Of a stretch of DNA of 64,000 nt, positions 19,701 to 60,763 are shown in pieces. How positions within the stretch are numbered: position 1 is the stretch's first letter; every line of letters starts with the position of its first letter. The notes below the pieces were generated by a model, which made no database searches, was not told the DNA's origin, and saw only the letters and a list, made by a program, of their open reading frames with translations. A program made the position numbers and the translations under genes. The DNA comes from an uncultured virus (IMG/VR IMGVR_UViG_3300046724_000456) (lineage: Duplodnaviria > Heunggongvirae > Uroviricota > Caudoviricetes): the IMG/VR virus record IMGVR_UViG_3300046724_000456, one strand, 5' to 3'.

Positions 19701-21179
19701 GCCGGTGCCAGCCACGACGCGACGTCGGTTCAGGAACTCGCGCAGGCACGCCAGGCCTACTTCTCCGGGATCCAGACCGCTGTCGCCGGCGACCTGCAGT
19801 ACGCGCTCGACTTCGCGAAAACGCCGGGTGAGAAAGGGGCTGCCTACTCGCAGGCGATCTCCAGGTACCAGGCCTTCGGTAGTAGCTCCGATGAATCGGC
19901 GACCAAGGCCGAAGCCAGCCTCAAGAAGCTGGTGCAGGAAAGAGAGAAGCTGCGCCGACGTCAGGCGTCACTGCCGCCGGAGACGCCGGGTAAGGACGTA
20001 CACCCTGAAGACATTGCGAAGGAACAGAACACGGCCAAAGCGATCCACTCGCTCGACTTGGAAATCCAGGCGGAGACGAAAAAGATCGGTGACATCAAAA
20101 AGAGTCAGGTCGAAAAGCGGCGCTTCATCAAAGACATCATCCAGCAGCTTCGCATCCAGGAGTACGAAGCCAACAGCGCACTTCGACAGGCTCAGGAGGG
20201 TGCGCGCGAGGCGCTCACCGCCAACCCTATCGTGCAGACCGAAGAGCAGATCAAGTTCCTCGGCGAACAGATTACGCGGGCGATCGGGATCTACGGCCGC
20301 GAGTCCCAGCAGGTGCTGACGTTGATCGCTGAACAGCGTCAGGCCCGTCAGCAACTCGCACAAAATCAGCTCTCACTCTTCCAGAGCAAGGGCGGCTTGG
20401 AAACGGCCGGAATCATCGAACAGATCCCGAAAGAGAAAGCCACTCTTCGCGGTGCCCACGGGCTCGAAGCACAACTCGCCTTCGTCAAATCTCACGAAAA
20501 CCAATTCGACCCGAAGACGCTGATTGACCTGGAGACCCAGGTAAAGGCGGCACAGGCTCAGCTCGCCTTCGACATCCAGCAGGAAGCCAACCAGACCAAA
20601 GATGCACACTTCCAGATCGAAGAGGCCCGGGCCACCGCTGGCGGGCACACTGTACGTGCAGCACAGATCGCCGTTCAACAGGCGCGTTACGACGTCGCCC
20701 ATGCACAGACTCCGCTCGAAAAACTGGGCGCGCAGCAGAACCTGATCCAGAGCTTGGCCTCCAAGCGAGACGCGGTCGCTCAGGCCCGACTGGAATCCAT
20801 CACCTTCGAGGCCAACATCTCAAAGATCACCACGCAGCAGGAGATCGAACAGCTCGAAACGTTGCTCCACACCTACAAACTGAGCCTGTCGATGCGCCGC
20901 CAGCTCCGCGAGCAGATCCACTCGCTCAAAGGTCAGCTCTCCAGCGAAGGTGAAAAGTTCAACCTCAACATCGGAGACTTCGCGCTGCCGACGGCCTATG
21001 ACATCCGGCGCGCGGTGCTCGGTGCCGGCGGTGGCCGCGGTGGCACGACCGTCACGCAGAACAACGAATTCCGTATCGAGAACCACTCGAATGATCCCGC
21101 CGTGCTCGGCCGTGCGATCGGTCACGCTCTCGGCCGCGGCGCGGAGTCCGCAGCGCGATCGGCAGGAGTAACCGCATGA
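16692..21179 (+). CDS. Tape measure protein
   Basis: 1495 aa, Ala/Gln-rich helical, TP901-like core (DVLDQVNQAQNNFGVS...ALITTGVKVTGQTGPTVGTAI). Confidence 0.92.
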   Translation: MPGSFDFGAFQKEAAQLLAQIRASGDKLAAIEREVKGGRATTSEVRARASEPVTAGGGGAGTTAEAEIRSRGLATDQLLAKQRELTTATRASSESERIMAQTMAQTSAGMQKSGALTNEFVDAAKRGEVTVRELGQQVAGTIAKFGGWIVAGSAVYFAFNALSAVKRGAIDAASGVNELQRVVNGVNTKKAEQEFQSLAGHFNLPIKEVADAAYEMGKVFNNQEEAFTAAKQVLYAVKIGELDTAAASRYLISIINGFHLPASRMADVLDQVNQAQNNFGVSTEDVLSGVAKASGAFHQASGEFKQYGRDYSYLLALITTGVKVTGQTGPTVGTAIARAPNFLRRPSNQEVLRQFGIEPNGPIEKVLNEAFKRVKTLTGKQVQELAAGIGGPQYGARVFTGLLSNYQKFKEVSEGTSPKASKGSAQRELQRQLGGVNEQITKLGVTLERIGEGLANSHLLDSLGGSLAVINQMLLGVNTLVQDFSKLPDFTQKFLAYLLQASIVLRLMRRFQVGESIAGGPGAQPGGVRGGVANFFGEGDRRYARLARTSLVNEQNALESERGRLGGQLGRAASEERYTGQGALRANQALIREQQRSGPLSTETAALQEKQIIAERAYVAAQETTRILKQKEASAAERLASVQASIGRVNKFGGRLNTKAAIEEAQKQNLPLPAGYGKGGVERPFRLGGTPLPSQQAELDAVKEMEKRGIVPPGLESETARATQATSGATGRLTGLGQKFGGLRGGLGKMGGAMSNLLGRAGELAFAAFTIGFLANTLTSVASSIGDEFEGITTSVTTAKAAAEQAKENATQATAGESFKERLTNAITEHTNLGPIPVPTLGLGGGKGVGEERAEVAALALTKYQDIQKLQDQERGSGKTVQYRYTSDIEKNIKEIEKSGKNRKEIRQALNKYDEQISQSAQALEGGAHAKGELEKAKTLLSKARVKSAASNELVEKLQLLTSKEISERLQASVTQLGGSLGQSYNAGAAKAAALKYQALVQKAGASHDATSVQELAQARQAYFSGIQTAVAGDLQYALDFAKTPGEKGAAYSQAISRYQAFGSSSDESATKAEASLKKLVQEREKLRRRQASLPPETPGKDVHPEDIAKEQNTAKAIHSLDLEIQAETKKIGDIKKSQVEKRRFIKDIIQQLRIQEYEANSALRQAQEGAREALTANPIVQTEEQIKFLGEQITRAIGIYGRESQQVLTLIAEQRQARQQLAQNQLSLFQSKGGLETAGIIEQIPKEKATLRGAHGLEAQLAFVKSHENQFDPKTLIDLETQVKAAQAQLAFDIQQEANQTKDAHFQIEEARATAGGHTVRAAQIAVQQARYDVAHAQTPLEKLGAQQNLIQSLASKRDAVAQARLESITFEANISKITTQQEIEQLETLLHTYKLSLSMRRQLREQIHSLKGQLSSEGEKFNLNIGDFALPTAYDIRRAVLGAGGGRGGTTVTQNNEFRIENHSNDPAVLGRAIGHALGRGAESAARSAGVTA

Positions 21180-21604
21180 GAGACAAGTTCACGGATCCGG
21201 CGACGGGCAAAAAATACGAATTCCAGACCGGTCACTCCAGTGAGGATGCGGTCGGCAAGGCGCGTGCGACAACGCTCAGCGCGAACACCGCCAACACCGG
21301 GCTCGTCAAGCAACAGGGCGACGTGCAGCCGCTGGTGCTCAAGTACCACGGCACGATCCGCCACAAGCACCAGCTCGAAGAATTCTGGGCGTGGTATGAG
21401 CTCTGCGAGACTCAGACGATTCACTTCACTGACTTCGCGGGCGAAGAGTACGAGGTCATTATCACTGAGTTCATGCCGTTGCGCAAACCGACCGTGAGAA
21501 ACCCGGCCGACCCAGTTAACGCTCCGCTTTGGTATTGGTCGTATGACCTGACGATGGAAGTGATCAGCGTCGTCTCAGGGGTCCTGGCGAACGTCACCCC
21601 CTGA
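21176..21604 (+). CDS. Distal tail (Dit-like) protein
   Basis: 142 aa directly after the TMP. Confidence 0.55.
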   Translation: MRDKFTDPATGKKYEFQTGHSSEDAVGKARATTLSANTANTGLVKQQGDVQPLVLKYHGTIRHKHQLEEFWAWYELCETQTIHFTDFAGEEYEVIITEFMPLRKPTVRNPADPVNAPLWYWSYDLTMEVISVVSGVLANVTP

Positions 21605-48361: not shown

Positions 48362-49240
48362 AGCAGTCTCTCTTGCTCGTGCTGCAGGGTGTAGCGCCGG
48401 CGCAGTTCCTTGATTGTAATTTCGTCGATGCGGTAGCCGGGCCGGGTGAAGCGTTCGATCTTGCAGGTGTGTATGCCGATCTCCAGGATCTGAATGTGCG
48501 GGCTGGTGGCGCGCAGACGGCTCGGATCCTTCGCGACCCAGGTCTGGCCGGGTGCTGGCCTCACTGCATCGGTGAGTAGTTGAGCCAGAGCTGGGCCGAG
48601 GTCGAGTAGATGGCCACGCCGCGGCGCTCTTCCGCCCGTCTGACGTCATTGGCTGTGATCTTGCCCGGTAGGTCGAGCCTGGTCTGGTAGGCCCGAGAGA
48701 CGGGCGTTCCGTCTCTCTCCATGGTCGTGACGATGAAGACGCAGTTCACGACTTCTCGCCTCCTGTAGTGGAGAGAGCGGCACGCAGGCGGGTCGCAAGC
48801 TCTCGGCACTTCGCAGTATCGGCACCGTCGCGCCACTCTTCGCCGGGGGTGCCGCTTGAGCCTGTGCGGGCTTCCAGTTCTCCGACAACATCAAGGATTT
48901 GCTCGCGGGTCTCCTCCCACTCAGAACGTAGATGGGGAAGGGCGGCTTCGACTGCGGGCCGCGTTCTCTCGCAGAGAGCTTGTTTTGTTGTCTTGGAGAG
49001 ATGCCACCAGGCGAGTTCGCTGTAGCGTGCTTCGAAGATCACCCTGGCTACTGCCTCAACAGCCTTGCCAGGGACTGCCGCCTTCTGCTGACCGTCGACC
49101 ATCTCCACTTCCACCCGCTCGCGGCGGTATTCGAGGGCTTCCGCGAGCACCTCTTGAACGTCCATTGCTGTCAGCCCCTGGGAACCCGTATCGGTTTTCA
49201 CTAGGAAGCAGACCGGGCTGTTCTGTCGAGACTGGTTCAT
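48358..49240 (-). CDS. Three coupled small hypothetical genes (48746-49240, 48561-48749, 48358-48564)
   Basis: Successive RTGA start/stop overlaps downstream of the recombinase. Confidence 0.55.
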
Positions 49241-50208
49241 GCGACCTGACTCTCGAACTGGTCCTCGTAGCGTTCCACATCGCGCTGGACATCGTCGACC
49301 ACGAGCTCGGCGTAGCCCTGGGTCTCGGAGATGTTGGCGTGGCCGAGCAGGCGGGAGACGCGCTCGATCGGCATCCCGGCGCGCAGCCAGTTGGTCGCGC
49401 ACGTATGCCGCATCCTGTGCAGCGTGAAGTCGCCGGCGTCGCGCAGATACATGGAGAAGCGCCGGAAGTCCATCGGTCGCAGCCAGACGCCCTCAGGACC
49501 GATCCTGGTGAGCGAGAGCCACGGTCGATCGTGCTTGGGCTTCAGTTCGGTGCGGAACTCGATCCAATCTTTCACTGCGGCGCGCGCTGCCTTGGTGTAG
49601 GGCACCTCACGGAACTTCTCGCCCTTGCCTTCGCGCACCACGATGTAGGCGTTGTCGTAGTGCATGTCGTCGAGCGAGAGGTCGAAGATCTCGCTGCGCC
49701 TGAGTCCGCAGTCGAGCGCGATCCTGGCGACGGCGGTGAGCTGCAGCCGGTGGGCGTGCGGTTCGATCCGTTTGTAGGCCGACGTTCCGCGCTTGAAGCG
49801 GGCTCGCCATTTTCCATCCGAATCGGATGGATATTGCTTGGCGATCGCGGGCCAGAGCTTCTTGATCTCCTTCGAGGAGTAGGGGCGCGGCAGTCGCTTC
49901 TTGATGTCCGGGAACTTGGCACGTTTGATGGTCAGGTACTCGTCGCTGGAGTAGAGGCCGGCGTCAAAGGCCCAGCCGAAGAATGGGCGCACGAGCATTC
50001 CGTACTTGCGGACGGTGATCGGCGCGAGGTTACTCTCGTTCAGTGAGAAGAGCCAACGCTTGTAGCCATCGCCAGTGCAGTCGAGCGGGTCAGACACCCC
50101 GACGAACTGACACAGATGCGCGAGCGCTTTGCCTTGTTCACGGCAGCGGCATATGGTCAGGCCATTGTAGTCCTGATACTCAGCTTTGAAGCGGTCGAGT
50201 GAGTTCAT
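49237..50208 (-). CDS. Tyrosine recombinase (XerC/integrase family)
   Basis: GLRRSEI, GKG, HRMRHTCAT, LLGHANISETQGY: complete R-K-H-R-H-Y set. Confidence 0.95.
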   Translation of the reverse strand: MNSLDRFKAEYQDYNGLTICRCREQGKALAHLCQFVGVSDPLDCTGDGYKRWLFSLNESNLAPITVRKYGMLVRPFFGWAFDAGLYSSDEYLTIKRAKFPDIKKRLPRPYSSKEIKKLWPAIAKQYPSDSDGKWRARFKRGTSAYKRIEPHAHRLQLTAVARIALDCGLRRSEIFDLSLDDMHYDNAYIVVREGKGEKFREVPYTKAARAAVKDWIEFRTELKPKHDRPWLSLTRIGPEGVWLRPMDFRRFSMYLRDAGDFTLHRMRHTCATNWLRAGMPIERVSRLLGHANISETQGYAELVVDDVQRDVERYEDQFESQVA

Positions 50209-55101: not shown

Positions 55102-55251
55102 TCAGCTTGCTAGAGCCATTCGTCGCACTTTCCGGAGATTGGATCTAAGGATGCGTCCCCGTGAGTCGTGCGACGCGCTCACTGAGAGATAGACCGCAAG
55201 CCCTGCGAATGGAAGCCCAGCCAACATTATGAGCGCTGGGAGGGCTTCCAT
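55102..55251 (-). CDS. Small single-pass membrane protein
   Basis: MEALPALIMLAGLPFAGLAVYLSVSA followed by a basic tail. Confidence 0.4.
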   Translation of the reverse strand: MEALPALIMLAGLPFAGLAVYLSVSASHDSRGRILRSNLRKVRRMALAS

Positions 55252-55381
55252 ATCGCGAGGGTTGTCGGATTTATCTTGCATGGGACACATTCGGAGGAGT
55301 TGGGATTTTCCCAGCTCGCATGGTCTACCGTGGCGAGGGAACATAGAAATATGCTGACCATAGTATAAATGTCCGTAAGGC

Positions 55382-55410
55382 TTGATATATGTAGAGCGGT
55401 CGCCGATAAT
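55382..55410 (+). promoter_or_regulatory. SigA-type promoter, leaderless transcript
   Basis: TTGATA-N17-GATAAT, with ATG at 55417 six nt downstream; located at the divergence point. Confidence 0.65.
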
Positions 55411-55416
55411 GCATAC

Positions 55417-56335
55417 ATGGACGCATACGGAAGCACTACAGAAGATGAGAGCCAGAGCCTTAACGCTTGGCTGAATGGTGATGAGCCCAGCAAGCCGGAG
55501 CCATTGAAGCCCAGTATCTGGACAGGCACCCTGACGCAGGAGGCGAAATAATGCGCAAGTCAGCCATTGAGCAGATTCGGCTAGAAGCCAAGGCCGAAGC
55601 TTTCAAGCTCGCCGCGGAATTTGTCGACGGCCCAAAACTTGGCTTGACTCCCGCCGAGCACATTCACCAAATGGCGCGCACTAGCGCCCAGAACCTGGAG
55701 GAACATATCAGGCTCCATGGGGAGTATTGCCCATGATTGTCGGATATACATATCGAGCTGATATTTACTGCCCGGAGCACATTCGCGACCAGATACCGGC
55801 CGCGCCTACCGTCGGGACCGTAGAGGAATCGCTAGACCGCTTGGCGGCTCACCGGAATATCGACCGCGCGGACGAATACTCATTCGACTCCGACGATTTC
55901 CCTAAGCCGATCACGCAAGAATCAATCGAGCGGGAAGGCCGACTGAGTCAGTGCGGCGACTGCGGCGACGCGGTCGGCGTCGAGACTGACTCACTGATCC
56001 ACCATTGGGAGACGGAAGCCGCGCAGGCTGGCATTCAAGCCGCTAAGGATTCGGCGAGCTGGACCGTCGACGGTAATCAGGACGTGGCGGAGCGCGCGCG
56101 AGTCCTAGCGATGATGCGGGATGGAGATCCGCAAGCTTTCGATTACCTGCCGAGCTCGCCTGACCTTAGCGGGGAATGGGCGGATGGTCCGACGCCGCGG
56201 AGTATTGCGGTCGAGATCGCAGGCGCGGAGCCAAGCCCAGAGACCGTCGACGTTATCGCCGATGCATGGGAGTCTGGCGTGTCGGATGCTTTCGAGTCGG
56301 CGTGCGAAGCGGAATTAATCAAGTTTTGCGAGTAA
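55417..56335 (+). CDS. Three hypothetical genes (55417-55551, 55551-55736, ~55733-56335)
   Basis: Coupled ORFs after the promoter; the last has YRADIYCPEH and CGDCG motifs. Confidence 0.55.
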
Positions 56336-56354
56336 ATCGCATCTAACAAGGAAA

Positions 56355-57071
56355 GTGAGACATTCGGAGATCATGATTACTGACCACGTAAAAGATATGG
56401 CTGCGCGTCGCAGTGAGGACGCAGCAAGCCACGGATATAACGGCCGCAACGGAAAAGGCGCGGACCTACTGCGAAGCGTTGCGCAAGCCGTGAGAATCGC
56501 ATCACGCCGCGTAGAAGGTCTCTACGGCGTGCCGACAATCACAGCCGCGGAGCGCGCCGAATATACATCGGAGCTTGTCGGCCGCTTGCTTGGAGAAAAT
56601 GGCGGCAAGATCCCTGACGCAAAAAAGCTCGGCAAGGGATATCTTGCCAAGCGCGCGCAAGGAATCATCCTCAACGATCGCGATCGGCGGAACGTTGCCT
56701 ATAGCGAAGGGGACCACGCGGAGCCCAGTATCGGCGAGGCTGGCAGGGATTCGCGCCTAGACGGTCCGCTTTCCGTGCCTGTAGAGCTGGAAGCCGCGGC
56801 ACGTCGACTCCATCTATCGACGGCCGGCCAACGCGCGCTTATTGCTGCAGTCGTCCCAGCGACGCGCGAGGAATGGGCGGAGCATTACGGCTATTCCAAC
56901 GCCGATAGCTGGAAAACGATAGCCAAGCGGGGACGCGCCGAGCTGCGCGAGATCGGACAGCATACGCTCCGCAAGGCATTGCGCGCGGCTGAAGCTGCTA
57001 CGGTCGACCGTCTCGACATCGCCGAGAGTCGGCTGCGCGAGATGGTGGAAGGCATGGAGCAGGCGATATGA
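56355..57071 (+). CDS. Diverged ECF sigma-like/HTH protein
   Basis: LSTAGQRAL...TREEWAEHYGYS..SWKTIAKRGRAELRE resembles sigma region 4; YLAKRAQGIILNDRDRR resembles region 2. Confidence 0.45.
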   Translation: MRHSEIMITDHVKDMAARRSEDAASHGYNGRNGKGADLLRSVAQAVRIASRRVEGLYGVPTITAAERAEYTSELVGRLLGENGGKIPDAKKLGKGYLAKRAQGIILNDRDRRNVAYSEGDHAEPSIGEAGRDSRLDGPLSVPVELEAAARRLHLSTAGQRALIAAVVPATREEWAEHYGYSNADSWKTIAKRGRAELREIGQHTLRKALRAAEAATVDRLDIAESRLREMVEGMEQAI

Positions 57072-57502
57072 CCAAGGCAGAAGAGAAGGCAGCCGAGCAG
57101 AAAGCCGCGGTGCGTGAGCTCCGCAAGATCGTGAAGCCGGGCGATACGTTGCATACGATCCTGCGGCACGTCAGTAGGTCGGGCATGTCGCGCAGCATCT
57201 CGGTGGTGAAGGTCGACAAGCGCGGCGGGATCCGTCAGCTTGACTATCTCGTCGCTATTGCGCTGGATCGCAAGGTCGACGATCATCGAGAAGGCATTAA
57301 GATCGGCGGCGCAGGCATGGACATGGGTTTCGCGCTCGTCTATGAGATCAGCGCGAAGCTCTACGGCTATGGCAATCCACGCGGCTACCGTTGCCTAGGC
57401 GATAGGTGTCCGAGCAATAGCCACGTCAATGATCGCAACGCACCTAGTGGGAAGGATGTACGCCACAAGGATGGCTATGCCATCTCGCATCGCTGGATGT
57501 AG
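57068..57502 (+). CDS. Conserved phage hypothetical protein
   Basis: KPGDTLHTILRHVSRSGMSRSISV...GGAGMDMGF motif. Confidence 0.7.
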   Translation: MTKAEEKAAEQKAAVRELRKIVKPGDTLHTILRHVSRSGMSRSISVVKVDKRGGIRQLDYLVAIALDRKVDDHREGIKIGGAGMDMGFALVYEISAKLYGYGNPRGYRCLGDRCPSNSHVNDRNAPSGKDVRHKDGYAISHRWM

Positions 57503-58102
57503 CGACGTCAGATAGTTAGCGTCGACGGCGCGCGAGAAGGGACACACTTCCCTTAGCCGTATCACCAGCATCCAAGAGAAGTAGCGTTTACAGCCCTAGT
57601 CGGCTTTCACAGCGGCTAGGGCTTTCGCTTGCAGGCACGGCTTAGGCGTGGTGGATATCTGACAGGGACGTTGACAGATACAACACACACACTGACACTT
57701 GCGACACGATTTAGCGGAATCCGGGCTTAGATTCGGAAACGAACACTTGCGAGCTCCGACTATGTAACACATACGCACAATGTTTAGTGCCTACAGCGGA
57801 CATCGTCCCTTAGAAACTGATGTAAGACCCCTCGGGTTTCCAGCGCCCAAATACGCACGCTCGAATAGACCCCATCGCACCCACACGCTCGCTACATCTC
57901 GAAAAAAATATGCAGTGCTGTAAATTTCTCCAATCATCTAGAAATTTCACACCCCTCCCCGAACCCGCCGCAGACCCCCGGAATCCGGCCACCTCCCCCA
58001 CCCAGCCGCCGTTCAGGCCGCTGGAACCCCCGCCAGACCCTCGAAAAACAGCCGAGGCCGAGAACGAGGCAGTGCGCGCCGCCGGCACGAGTGCGCGCCC
58101 AG

Positions 58103-58116
58103 GTTCCACGTGGAAC
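58103..58116. promoter_or_regulatory. parS-like palindrome
   Basis: Perfect 14-bp palindrome GTTCCACGTGGAAC, close to the chromosomal parS core GTT(T/C)CACGTG(A/G)AAC. Confidence 0.65.
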
Positions 58117-58130
58117 GGTATGCTCACCTC

Positions 58131-58259
58131 GCGCCCGTAGCTCAGACGCCAGTCCTCACGCCGGTCCGGAACGGTGAAAACCCTTAGGTGAGAGGAGTCA
58201 GGAAAAGAGCGACGCCGTCTCTACGGTGGAGGTCGTCGGTTGGCAGCCGGCCGGGCGCT
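58131..58259 (+). ncRNA. tRNA-Arg-like RNA with expanded D-loop
   Basis: 7-bp acceptor stem GCGCCCG/CGGGCGC, D-stem GCTC/GAGC around 63 nt, CGCCG/CGGTG arm, AGGTC, T-arm GTCGG-TTGGCAG-CCGGC; TATGCT -10 hexamer 6 nt upstream. Confidence 0.6.
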
Positions 58260-58270
58260 ATAGTTCAGGA

Positions 58271-60763
58271 ATGCCCTCCCCCCTCGGTTCCCAGCTCAAC
58301 GGCTACGACATCGAGTGGGACCCGCCCCGGTTCACCCCGCAGAAAGACGGCCGAACCCTCCTGGTGAAGTGCGCTTCCGACGGGGCAGTGCGCGCCGGCG
58401 CTCACATCGGTAACGATGGGCACATCTCGCACGTCGCGGTCGAGCCCTCCCCGTTCGGGGTCGAGGCGATGAAGATCCTCGCCATCCTGCTGCCGTAAAT
58501 GCTGCAACCTCCGGGGAAATAAACGTTCCCCCCTCCAGGTTCGGATGGTAGGGTGCGGCCATGAAGATCGAGATCAGGGTGACCGAGAGCGACGGGTGGA
58601 TCCGGGCGACCGCCGAAAGTGAGGGTGGTGTGCTCGGCGAGAGCGCGGCCCCGGTCGTCGACGGTGCCACCTTCGACCTCCGCGCCGCGGTGATCCGCGA
58701 CGTCGTCGAGCAGGCGCTGCGATGATGGAGGCCCAGCTCGCAGCGATCGAGAAGTTCTGCCGCGAGAACGAAGGCACCTTCGGCCTCGGCGTCGGCCAGA
58801 AGGGCGGCTGGTCGGCGATGCTCAATTTCGGCCGCGAGGCTCCCGACTCCCCGATGGCAGCCGGCTCGGCGATCGGCGGCGGCGGTCCGGAGACCACGGC
58901 TGCCGAAGCGATCACGGATCTCGTCGAAGAACTACATCTCGACTGCTGATGGCTGGCGACGACTTCGGCAAGCGCGTATATATCGTGGCCCGCGAGGGGC
59001 AGGGAACTCGATTCCTGGCCCACCGCGCGGATCTCGCGAACCCGCCTCACCACGCCGGTCAGACCCAGGAGGTTTCGGCCTTCTCGGAGACCGAAGCTAT
59101 CGCGATCGCCGCGGCCGGCTACGAACAGATGCACCCGCCGGCGGTTCTGGTCGACGCGATCGAAGACGCGATCTCCCAGGCGCAGGCCGGGCATCTCGAC
59201 CATGGGGTCCAGGCGCGCGCCGTCCTTGAGGCGATCGACAGGATCGGCCGCTGATGAAGGTTCTAGTCGTTAGGATGCCCGCCGCCGCGGCCCGCGACAA
59301 GCTGGCGATCTCGGTCGAGCTCGCCGGGCGCTCCGAAGAAATGGAGGAGGCCGACATCGTGATCGGCATCTGGGGCACCGACGACTCCGCCCACGTGATG
59401 AAGGATCGCTATGGCACCTACGGACTGGGCGAGGTCAACGTGGTCAACGCCCGTTCGATCGCGAAGGCGCTGCGGGAGAGTGATCCGCTATGAGCCGGAC
59501 ATTCGCCGGAGTGCCACTGTGAGGGCCTACACCGTCATCCGGTGGGTGCGGGCGGTCGACGAGCAGACCGTCTTTGCCAACACGGCCGAGGAAGCGGCAC
59601 AGAAATCAGACACTGGCGACGTCGAGGACTCCGAACGCACCGGTGAGGCCACCGGCATCCGATCGGTTCACCGAGACCCCGCCGAAGACGAGCGCTGCGC
59701 CGAAGCGTATGGACCTCACGATCCGAGGAAGGCCTGATGGCCGACGAGCTCACCCGCGAGACGCTCGATCGCCTGGCGCTCTCCTATGGAGGCAAGGTGG
59801 GGCTCGGCTGTGCTACACACCCCGACGTCGGCACCACTGCCCTCTATCAGGATGGCTCCGTTCGGATCCTCTGCCGGGAGTGCGGTTTCGAGGCGATGCG
59901 GGTGAAGGTTGCCCAGAAGGAGACCTCGTGATCTGCTGGGCCTGCAAGCTCGGGTTGCACGGTAAGTGCCTGGCCGGGGCGTGTGGCTGCGACGGGAAGT
60001 GCAAGGAGCGCCTGGAGGCCAAATACGCGCCGAAGGCCGAGAAGTGAAGTTCCGGGCCACCTCCTACTCGATGGGCTCGATCGTCGCCGTGGCGCACTTC
60101 GAGGCCCCCACCTACTCCGCCGCGCGCCGGCACCCGAAGGTTGCCGAACTCCCCGCCGCCGGCAGCAGCGACCGCGGCAAGGTCAAGGTCGTCGGGATCA
60201 AGCCGCTGCGATGAGCCTCCGAGAGAAAGCCGAAGCTGAAGTGGAGGCCGATCAGATGCGCGCCCGCGAACGCCGCGAGACCGAGGCGGAGCGTGCCCAC
60301 CGCCGCCATCTCGAAGACGCCAAGCCCGCGGCCGAGTGGTTATCGGACTGGTCAGGGATGTCGGTTGGTCCGCAGGAGCTAACACACGCCCCCAAGTACT
60401 TCCCTGGCTTCCACGCCTACAAAACCTGGAAGATGACGCTCGATGGCTTCGAGCTGGTGATCAAACAGGAGAAGCGTTACAAGCCGATGCTGGAGGAGCA
60501 CACACCCGACTGGGACTTCGAGCTCTACCAGAAGCTTGTTACTGGCGAGACTCGGCGTGTCAGCCGCCCGGCAGATCTCCTGGAGCCTGAGCGGACCGTG
60601 GCGTGATGGGTTCGGGAATTGACGACCCCGAAGTGGGCGGAGACGCGCTCTGGATCCTGATGATGGTGATCGGTGTCGTTCTCCTAGTGCTGATCCTCAC
60701 CCACAATGCGCCGCCCCACCACTGTCAGGCCGCGAAGAAGTGTCATGTTCACCCCCATCGGTA
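58271..60763 (+). CDS. Run of about eleven small hypothetical genes
   Basis: Chain of TGATG/RTGA-coupled ORFs (e.g. 58561-58725, 58722-58949, 58949-59254, 59254-59493, 59737-59931, 60211-60606); several are Cys-rich and one has a TM helix. Confidence 0.6.

Follow-up and report, generated by a model that had tools for sequence, protein, structure and literature searches.

A tRNA-Arg-like element with a D-loop insert at a putative early promoter of an uncultured temperate phage, and a set of viral tRNA-like genes of similar build

The uncultured virus record IMGVR_UViG_3300046724_000456 carries a 129-base tRNA-Arg-like element, interrupted in its D loop, directly upstream of an operon of small genes. 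The stretch analysed, 64,000 nucleotides long and called the window here, is most of the genome of a tailed temperate phage of about 61% G+C and roughly 79 kb. Its large terminase finds a best GenBank match of only 32% identity, and its proteins include a tape-measure protein with a minor-tail domain, a RuvB-like ATPase, an SNF2 helicase and glycosyltransferases. Logan contigs place the window in soil and rhizosphere metagenomes, none of the matching sequencing runs being an RNA run, and the phage proteins together with leaderless promoters indicate a bacterial, probably actinobacterial, host. The element occupies part of a 770-bp non-coding gap that separates a 144-aa gene (57068-57502) from rightward small open reading frames (ORFs) starting at ATG 58271, about 8 kb from the integrase gene (Table 1). 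An independent Logan contig (78,895 nt, from the probable source run) spans 57500-58900 with 0 differences, so the element is a real sequence and not an assembler quirk of a single pipeline.

Table 1. Coordinates of the element, its parts and the flanking features in the window
Feature	Position	Strand	Sequence, basis or remark
tRNA-Arg-derived cloverleaf with D-loop insert, through discriminator T	58131..58259	+	129 bases; direct reading
D-loop insert, between A14-G15 and G18-G19	58146..58200	+	55 nt; equally 58146-58201, 56 nt, owing to the TCAG repeat
Anticodon loop	58217..58224	+	GTCTCTAC, 8 nt; 6 nt if an extra G-C pair closes the loop
T loop	58240..58246	+	TTGGCAG; G56, C58 and G60 in place of conserved C, A and T
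Perfect palindrome, operator-like	58103..58116	.	GTTCCACGTGGAAC; unique at 0 mismatches in the window; 1 change in relative L059
-10 box of putative promoter P1	58119-58124	+	TATGCT (TANNNT); 6 nt, then G58131, the first acceptor base
-10 box of putative promoter P2, directly 3' of the acceptor stem	58259..58264	+	TATAGT; N6, then ATG 58271
First ORF of the rightward small-gene operon	58271..58498	+	75 aa; 96% identical to the L059 homologue
Tyrosine integrase	49237-50208	-	Pfam/PHROG scan of ORFs

The element keeps the helices of a tRNA and departs from one in its hairpin loops. The original prediction held that all four stems can pair, and direct reading agrees: the acceptor stem joins GCGCCCG (58131-58137) to CGGGCGC (58252-58258), the D stem GCTC (58140-58143) to GAGC (58207-58210) and the T stem GTCGG to CCGGC, all without a mismatch (7/7, 4/4 and 5/5). 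The anticodon stem, ACGCC (58212-58216) against GGTGG (58225-58229), pairs at 4/5 with an A-G mismatch and one G-T pair, which completes the four-stem cloverleaf of a canonical bacterial tRNA. The core positions U8, A9, A14, G15 and G26 and the variable loop AGGTC are retained, as are G18-G19 and the A-rich residues of the D loop. The 56-nt insert described earlier is present and counts 55 or 56 nt, because a TCAG direct repeat leaves its boundary ambiguous; the two copies lie at 58142-58145 and 58198-58201 as described, and a 4-nt repeat is trivial. The unusual T loop and the missing CCA had also been read correctly, the discriminator T58259 being followed by ATA. The 6-nt anticodon loop TCTCTA holds if the extra G-C pair is counted, and becomes the 8-nt loop of Table 1 otherwise.

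Sequence comparison ties the element to tRNA-Arg at both ends. A search with its first 15 bases, GCGCCCGTAGCTCAG, succeeded in 279 of the 401 genomes sampled from one bacterial phylum, while a reversed control gave 2 hits; all 32 ARAGORN tRNAs that start with this 15-mer in the loci fetched are tRNA-Arg. The 3' part was searched with a pattern of variable loop, T stem and acceptor 3' strand that specifies 23 bases and leaves five inner T-loop bases free. It matched twice in 596 Gb of species-representative genomes, once in a bona fide tRNA-Arg(CCT) and once in an orphan tRNA 3' fragment. Without its insert the element reaches an identity of 0.70 (median 0.62) to 33 distinct real tRNA-Arg, which resemble one another at a median of 0.74 and a minimum of 0.55. 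Thus the 5' 15-mer, D stem, variable loop, T stem and acceptor agree with real tRNA-Arg, and the ancestry proposed earlier is, by these comparisons, well above chance. BLAST of the element's 3' 67 nt over the same 401 genomes returned only weak matches of 15-30 nt. The orphan fragment (L060 401-428, minus strand; L066) extends from the variable loop to the acceptor end on a contig of an actinobacterial metagenome-assembled genome (MAG). It has neither a 5' half nor an ARAGORN call, and the two flanking ORFs tested encode no integrase.

Changes relative to real tRNA-Arg fall mainly in the T loop. For a comparison in register we kept 27 of the 33 real tRNA-Arg, dropping six with fewer than 19 stem pairs, and scored positions conserved in at least 90%. 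Of the 24 conserved stem positions, two are changed in the element; they are the partners of pair 30-40, turned from G-C to C-G and thus compensated. The element differs at none of three conserved single-stranded core positions and at three of five in the T loop (C56G, A58C and T60G), in line with the earlier statement that stems are preserved and loops altered. The element has neither the 7-nt anticodon loop with U33 and a 3-nt anticodon nor the T54-T55-C56-R57-A58 T loop. Its minimum-free-energy fold is the cloverleaf, and this fold closes both hairpin loops, giving an anticodon stem of 6 bp capped by a CUCU tetraloop and a T stem of 7 bp that leaves 3 nt in its loop. The folding energy of the whole element is no better than that of shuffled sequences (z -0.48).

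Standard tools do not detect the element as a tRNA. ARAGORN called none in the native window sequence. Rfam gave no match in the window at gathering level (cut-off 29 bits for RF00005). Relaxing the threshold to E<=10 and restricting the query to 57900-58500, to the element or to its 3' 65 nt also gave none, whereas the corresponding 3' 53 nt from a genuine tRNA-Arg, run as a control, scored 35.9 bits (E 6.6e-7). Scripted excision of 52-56 nt led ARAGORN to call a 73-77-nt "tRNA-??? (tc)" in 19 of 550 excisions. The idea that removing the insert leaves a cloverleaf is correct to this extent, and the suggested check with and without the insert yields nothing for the native sequence and a call with a 2-base anticodon for the excised one. 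Excision of seven lengths at every window position also produced calls at four unrelated places, so that a call after excision is by itself no evidence. Those places (22699, 22905, 30347 and 46832, with a 40-66-nt piece removed) look like chance. A minus-strand "tRNA-Arg(acg)" at 58097-58170 surfaced only at a lowered ARAGORN threshold and was treated as noise.

The insert does not resemble a known type of intron and folds no better than shuffled sequences. It had been described as structured, which its folding energy does not bear out (z -0.18, with 82 of 200 shuffles as good; z -0.52 in a second test). Comparison with the rest of the element, the promoter and the window revealed no similarity beyond chance. 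Archaeal tRNA introns carry a bulge-helix-bulge (BHB) motif, two 3-nt bulges around a 4-bp helix, at the exon-intron borders; scored with this textbook geometry, the element contains 0 such motifs at the insert borders, and an archaeal-type intron is excluded. Group I and II introns in tRNAs measure hundreds of nucleotides, possess a catalytic core and interrupt the anticodon loop. The 55-nt insert is far below the size they need, lies in the D loop and has no Rfam intron match, which rejects these types too. We know of no protein-based splicing route for tRNA in a bacterial host of actinobacterial type, and the unusual intron put forward at the outset finds no footing in this bacterial-type phage.

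A nearly identical region without the element exists in a relative. The sole close relative in IMG/VR (L059/G403) is a 78,875-bp genome with terminal repeats that is rated complete, and its integrase is 99% identical to that of the window. Its DNA matches the window at 96% over 55191-57074, 79% over 57509-58136 and 91% over 58271-58954. Nothing in it corresponds to the 140 bp at 58131-58270; contigs from two further runs (X3 and X4) show the same element-less joint, and the relative contains no copy of the element and no tRNA at all (RF00005, E<=1). The element is, judging from this complete close relative, dispensable. The relative retains the palindrome as GTT(T/C)CACGTGGAAC and reads TATAGT-CACATC-ATG, with the box six bases before the ATG of its 75-aa ORF. 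This is the geometry of a leaderless mRNA, a form common in Actinobacteria.

The two arrangements would fit a block inserted at a transcription start. The relative's spacer resembles that of P1, and its -10 box and ATG match those of P2, which repeats the leaderless TATAGT-N6-ATG geometry; the two known states fit an insertion at this point. Homology and spacing mark P1 and P2 as putative promoters, and the palindrome is a putative operator. The original prediction had placed +1 on the first acceptor base by way of a -10 hexamer, a geometry that the relative's TATAGT-N6-ATG backs. Strict sigma-70 and terminator scans of 57300-58600 found nothing, so P1 rests on homology and geometry. Under this scheme, the 140-bp block would lie exactly between the P1 start point and the start codon of the first operon gene. 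Since P1, as an operator-controlled early promoter, would start on the first acceptor base, the tRNA-like RNA would be made as the 5' end of the operon transcript, and P2 at the element's 3' edge would preserve a leaderless start for the ORF. The RNA would fold into four helices without a 7-nt anticodon loop and without the T54-A58 and G19-C56 elbow contacts, and would therefore most likely be neither charged nor used in translation.

The element is single-copy in every collection searched. Three exact or gapped pattern scans of IMG/VR gave 0 second copies, which excludes a repeated mobile element. Blastn and nhmmer over the window and 64 loci likewise found none, only weak matches to the real tRNA-Arg genes of one locus (L061), and blastn against GenBank phages and plasmids found only 30-36-nt matches at E 1-5, the phage ones on annotated tRNAs. 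Neighbouring proteins led, in IMG/VR, to the relative or to nothing, and the promoter pattern had three matches in JGI metagenomes, all unrelated. Among 59 loci of the 144-aa protein and its relatives, ARAGORN called three tRNAs, none resembling the element. One locus (L009 1988-2078) has a 91-nt ARAGORN "tRNA-Arg(acg)" upstream of the 144-aa gene homologue, with a canonical T arm and an odd 5' part; it may be another interrupted tRNA and looked unrelated to the element.

Viral genomes contain further tRNA genes with large D-loop inserts. We scanned IMG/VR with a generic pattern (TAGCTCAG, 35-65 free bases, AGAGC, 18-21 free, GGTC, 4 free, GTT), which matched at least 117 stretches; 80 loci were listed, and all counts below are among the matches listed. 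In 36 of them the acceptor stem (at least 6/7) and T stem (at least 4/5) pair in a register that the pattern does not specify, against about 0.07 of 80 expected by chance. Four of these are ordinary tRNAs preceded by a duplicate of their own first 15 bases, and seven have an early complete D arm, among them long-variable-arm suppressor-like tRNAs and two loci (L121/L153) that we counted with the L170 family described below. At least 25 viral loci carry an extra 35-65 nt inside the D loop while acceptor, D, anticodon and T stems remain intact (for example L120:294-414, L131:294-401, L167:283-389 on the minus strand, and L186:294-400). The exact 15-base duplicates, 45-55 nt upstream of tRNAs for Thr, Thr and Arg (L124, L147/L178 and L162), could be att-type scars or a route to D-loop inserts.

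Many members of this set look like otherwise canonical tRNA genes. The T loop keeps TTC in 24 of 25, unlike the window's element, the anticodon loop has 7 nt in 14 of 25, and many encode CCA. By a simple regular expression, 18 of 25 have a GG following the insert towards the 3' side of the loop, which is also the arrangement of the window's element. Of 20 loci given to the Rfam tRNA model, several score above its cut-off at full length despite the insert (L123, 57.9 bits; L167, 50.9; L186, 44.4; L156, 43.7), and the model covers the 3' part of five more; ARAGORN misses set members or misplaces an intron. Inserts in the set fold at a median z of -1.36, with 9 of 25 below -2, against -0.52 for the window's insert. 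Covariation appears within the inserted arm, at three insert pairs among L135, L150 and L160 and at one in L144 and L184. BHB motifs occur in 3 of 26, against 2.4 expected from shuffles.

One member comes from a cultured phage. Locus L135 is identical to 21167-21312 (minus strand) of the Lactobacillus phage Lb genome MG020111.1 (= L237 2501-2646), where an unannotated gene resembling tRNA-Ile(GAT), its D loop carrying a 62-nt insert of two hairpins, sits between a regulator gene (orf25) and orf24/small terminase. Because this L. brevis phage is cultured, D-loop inserts are not confined to archaeal viruses or metagenome artefacts. We found no description of such inserts in phage tRNAs in the literature searched, the coverage of which was incomplete; the set is assembled here and is no established family.

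Two groups of loci found by the scan have peculiarities of their own. The L170 family (L170:294-398; L176:283-387, minus strand; L181; L194:283-388, minus strand; L121:294-397; L153) lies on contigs of about 68% GC and combines a nearly identical tRNA body and the anticodon loop CTCACG with inserts of 33-35 nt. Its flanks hold further odd tRNA-like genes, to which ARAGORN assigns 2-base anticodons, and a tmRNA-like 3' end. Loci L154:294-396 and L197 have a CTA (amber-reading) anticodon in the loop CTCTAAA and an extra arm of about 30 nt after the anticodon arm; L154 scores 61.7 bits with the Rfam tRNA model.

The window's element shares the architecture of the set and is a degenerate outlier within it. 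A14-G15, insert, GG, A-rich tail and D stem follow one another as in the other members, with the remaining arms in register. A model, R1, made from the 25 other set sequences finds the element and nothing else in the window: it scores 46.7 bits, at full length and on exactly 58131-58259, with the next best hit at 9.5 bits. This test is partly circular, because the collecting pattern was modelled on the window and about 20 invariant columns match by construction. R1 also gives ordinary tRNAs 74-79 bits in 151 of 151 genomes and is thus a tolerant tRNA model, not a class-specific one. What sets the element apart is its non-canonical T loop, 8-nt anticodon loop, unremarkable insert fold and lack of CCA.

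We read the element as a dispensable relic of a phage tRNA-Arg gene rather than a gene under selection. Specifically, it would be a non-decoding relic of the D-loop-insert type that is probably still transcribed as a leader, and we put the probability of this reading at about one half. Several observations weigh against it. A single one of the 21 stem pairs is broken. The changes are unevenly spread, at 3 of 5 T-loop positions and 2 of 27 elsewhere, where neutral decay predicts an even spread; a Fisher test by hand gives p ~0.02, a mild and post-hoc result. It lends mild support to the preserved stems and altered loops of the original prediction, and decay still leads. The edges of the element are also exact: its first base is the +1 of the conserved putative promoter and its 3' end falls on a -10 box, a placement that looks arranged and not accidental. 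In the wider set, the anticodon loop has 6, 8 or 9 nt in 11 of 25, and L170, L176/L181, L194 and L121/L153 share an identical anticodon arm with a 6-nt loop while their inserts differ, which suggests that such RNAs may be functional as a class. One sequence of the element is known, so selection can be measured neither way.

Those observations would be explained if the element were a working tRNA mimic that does not decode, a reading we consider the main rival and distinctly less probable. The RNA starting at the P1 +1 would bind a tRNA-recognising protein through its helices and core, as a decoy or inhibitor of a tRNA-targeting defence nuclease, a modification enzyme, RNase P/Z or a synthetase, or else would protect the early transcript at its 5' end. 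On this view adaptation rather than damage would account for the D-loop arm and for the closure of the anticodon and T loops. Retention of stems and core with changes in three hairpin loops and a compensated sole stem change suits this idea, as does the exact placement at +1. So does the recurrence of inserts at this D-loop site in at least 25 viral tRNA-like genes, some with covarying arms and 9 of 25 with z<-2, and so do the non-7-nt anticodon loops of 11 of 25; the existence of these other genes keeps the idea alive. Phage tRNAs that evade or counter tRNA-targeting defences are known (PMC10264068, PMC11555353). But the element has no homologue that could reveal covariation and is missing from the nearest relative, its T loop is an outlier in the set, its insert fold is unremarkable and it matches no Rfam family. 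A bolder extension places the element, as a functioning RNA, in a class of phage tRNA-like RNAs that has not been described, early-made non-decoding mimics; on present sequence comparisons we regard this as doubtful. Such a class would tentatively be defined by a tRNA body with a structured D-loop arm inserted after G15 and before G18 and, in many members, an anticodon loop of 6 or 8 nt. Its members might conceivably serve as decoys against tRNA-targeting defences or as handles for tRNA-binding proteins, and the wider set would also hold apparently decoding tRNAs with a permanent or removable arm.

The remaining explanations are much less probable than the transcribed relic we favour. A functional tRNA-Arg gene, whose 55-56-nt insert is removed to leave a 73-nt product that decodes arginine codons or reads with an 8-nt loop, would account for the ARAGORN-accepted cloverleaf after insert removal, for the remaining G18-G19 and A-rich D-loop residues, and for viral relatives in type that are otherwise canonical and in several cases above the Rfam cut-off. 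It is very unlikely: the insert-less element still has a 6- or 8-nt anticodon loop and a T loop without C56 and A58, its 3' two-thirds have no Rfam tRNA match at E<=10, and the insert has no BHB borders, is too short for a group I or II intron and has no known splicing route in the host. Hardly more credible is a scar left in the DNA by recombination with a tRNA-Arg gene of the host (aberrant excision, att remnant or break capture) and without an RNA role. The phage does encode a tyrosine integrase, the actinobacterial orphan fragment at L060 has the same T stem, viral contigs show 5'-fragment duplications beside tRNAs (L124, L147/L178, L162), and the left edge of the block shares GCCC with the start of the relative's ORF. 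Yet the element lies some 8 kb from the integrase gene and corresponds to an entire tRNA rather than to a 3' portion; it is missing from the relative, whose integrase is 99% identical, no tRNA 3' fragment was seen as an attP near the integrase, and the only canonical-loop donor found to have its T stem and acceptor is one tRNA of a proteobacterial MAG. Chance pairing in GC-rich non-coding DNA could produce a cloverleaf that folds no better than its shuffles, and ARAGORN-after-excision was misled at four places in the window. The exact tRNA-Arg 5' 15-mer, the 23 exact bases shared with a real tRNA-Arg and the identity of up to 0.70 nonetheless refute this explanation in our view, and we give it next to no weight.

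The element matters less for itself than for the set to which it points. Taken alone it is one dispensable, probably dead tRNA copy of modest interest. Should RNAs of the set prove to be produced and used, a large D-loop arm would have to be tolerated, or removed, in translation or tRNA processing of the bacterial type, a novelty for tRNA biology. Counts of phage tRNAs would then be too low, and members with 6- or 8-nt anticodon loops would be candidate tRNA mimics in phage-host conflict. The locus itself appears to illustrate how a block can separate a leaderless promoter from its ATG without loss of the leaderless start, which a second -10 box maintains.

The neighbourhood of the element holds further features. 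The 75-aa ORF matched no Pfam or PHROG family. The 144-aa gene (phrog_12365) is a mosaic swap, replaced by unrelated DNA at L059 1882-2371 in a relative otherwise 96% identical, and its product has 58 distant relatives in IMG/VR. An AT-rich segment at 57880-57950 with an 8-bp inverted repeat (AAATTTCT ... AGAAATTT) is almost invariant between the two phages, against 79% identity in the intergenic DNA around it, and could act in regulation or as an origin-like site. The sequence AGTGCGCGCC occurs in three exact copies (58071-58080, 58090-58099 and 58387-58396), two just upstream of the palindrome and -10 box and the third inside the first ORF, and these may be protein-binding sites.

Known systems share single traits with the element. 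YrlA and other Y-RNA-like bacterial RNAs are tRNA mimics, and the original prediction offered a Y-RNA-like scaffold as one option. Rfam matched the element to no such family, on which ground we rejected a YrlA-like RNA, and 40 ORF scans against Pfam and PHROGs, covering part of the ORFs and some of them in both databases, turned up no Ro/Rsr (TROVE-type) gene. tRNA pseudogenes are reported in phage genome papers, and the element resembles phage tRNA genes and pseudogenes in being a tRNA-derived gene of a tailed phage that is missing from a close relative. It differs in its 55-nt D-loop insert, in loops that are spoiled while the stems are intact, in its position exactly between a putative +1 and a leaderless ATG, and in being missed by ARAGORN and Rfam. 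Archaea have non-canonical BHB tRNA introns, including some at D-arm positions (PMC3241643, PMC4033280), and like these the insert lies outside the anticodon loop of a tRNA gene. The element differs from them in having no BHB motif at its borders and in belonging to a bacterial-type phage, with a minor-tail tape-measure domain, leaderless TANNNT promoters and the 5' end of a bacterial-phylum tRNA-Arg. The tRNA-dependent lysogeny of actinobacteriophages needs a functional phage tRNA (PMC10865867) and shares with this phage the temperate lifestyle, the tyrosine integrase and the single tRNA-type gene. The element is non-canonical, however, and we ruled out such a role because the relative, whose integrase is 99% identical, has 0 tRNAs. 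Phage tRNAs able to escape anticodon nucleases stay functional with 7-nt loops, whereas the element's loop has 8 or 6 nt. What it has in common with tRNA mimics that evade or counter tRNA-targeting defences, as portrayed in the two reports (PMC10264068, PMC11555353), is its tRNA-like helices, altered loops and phage context.

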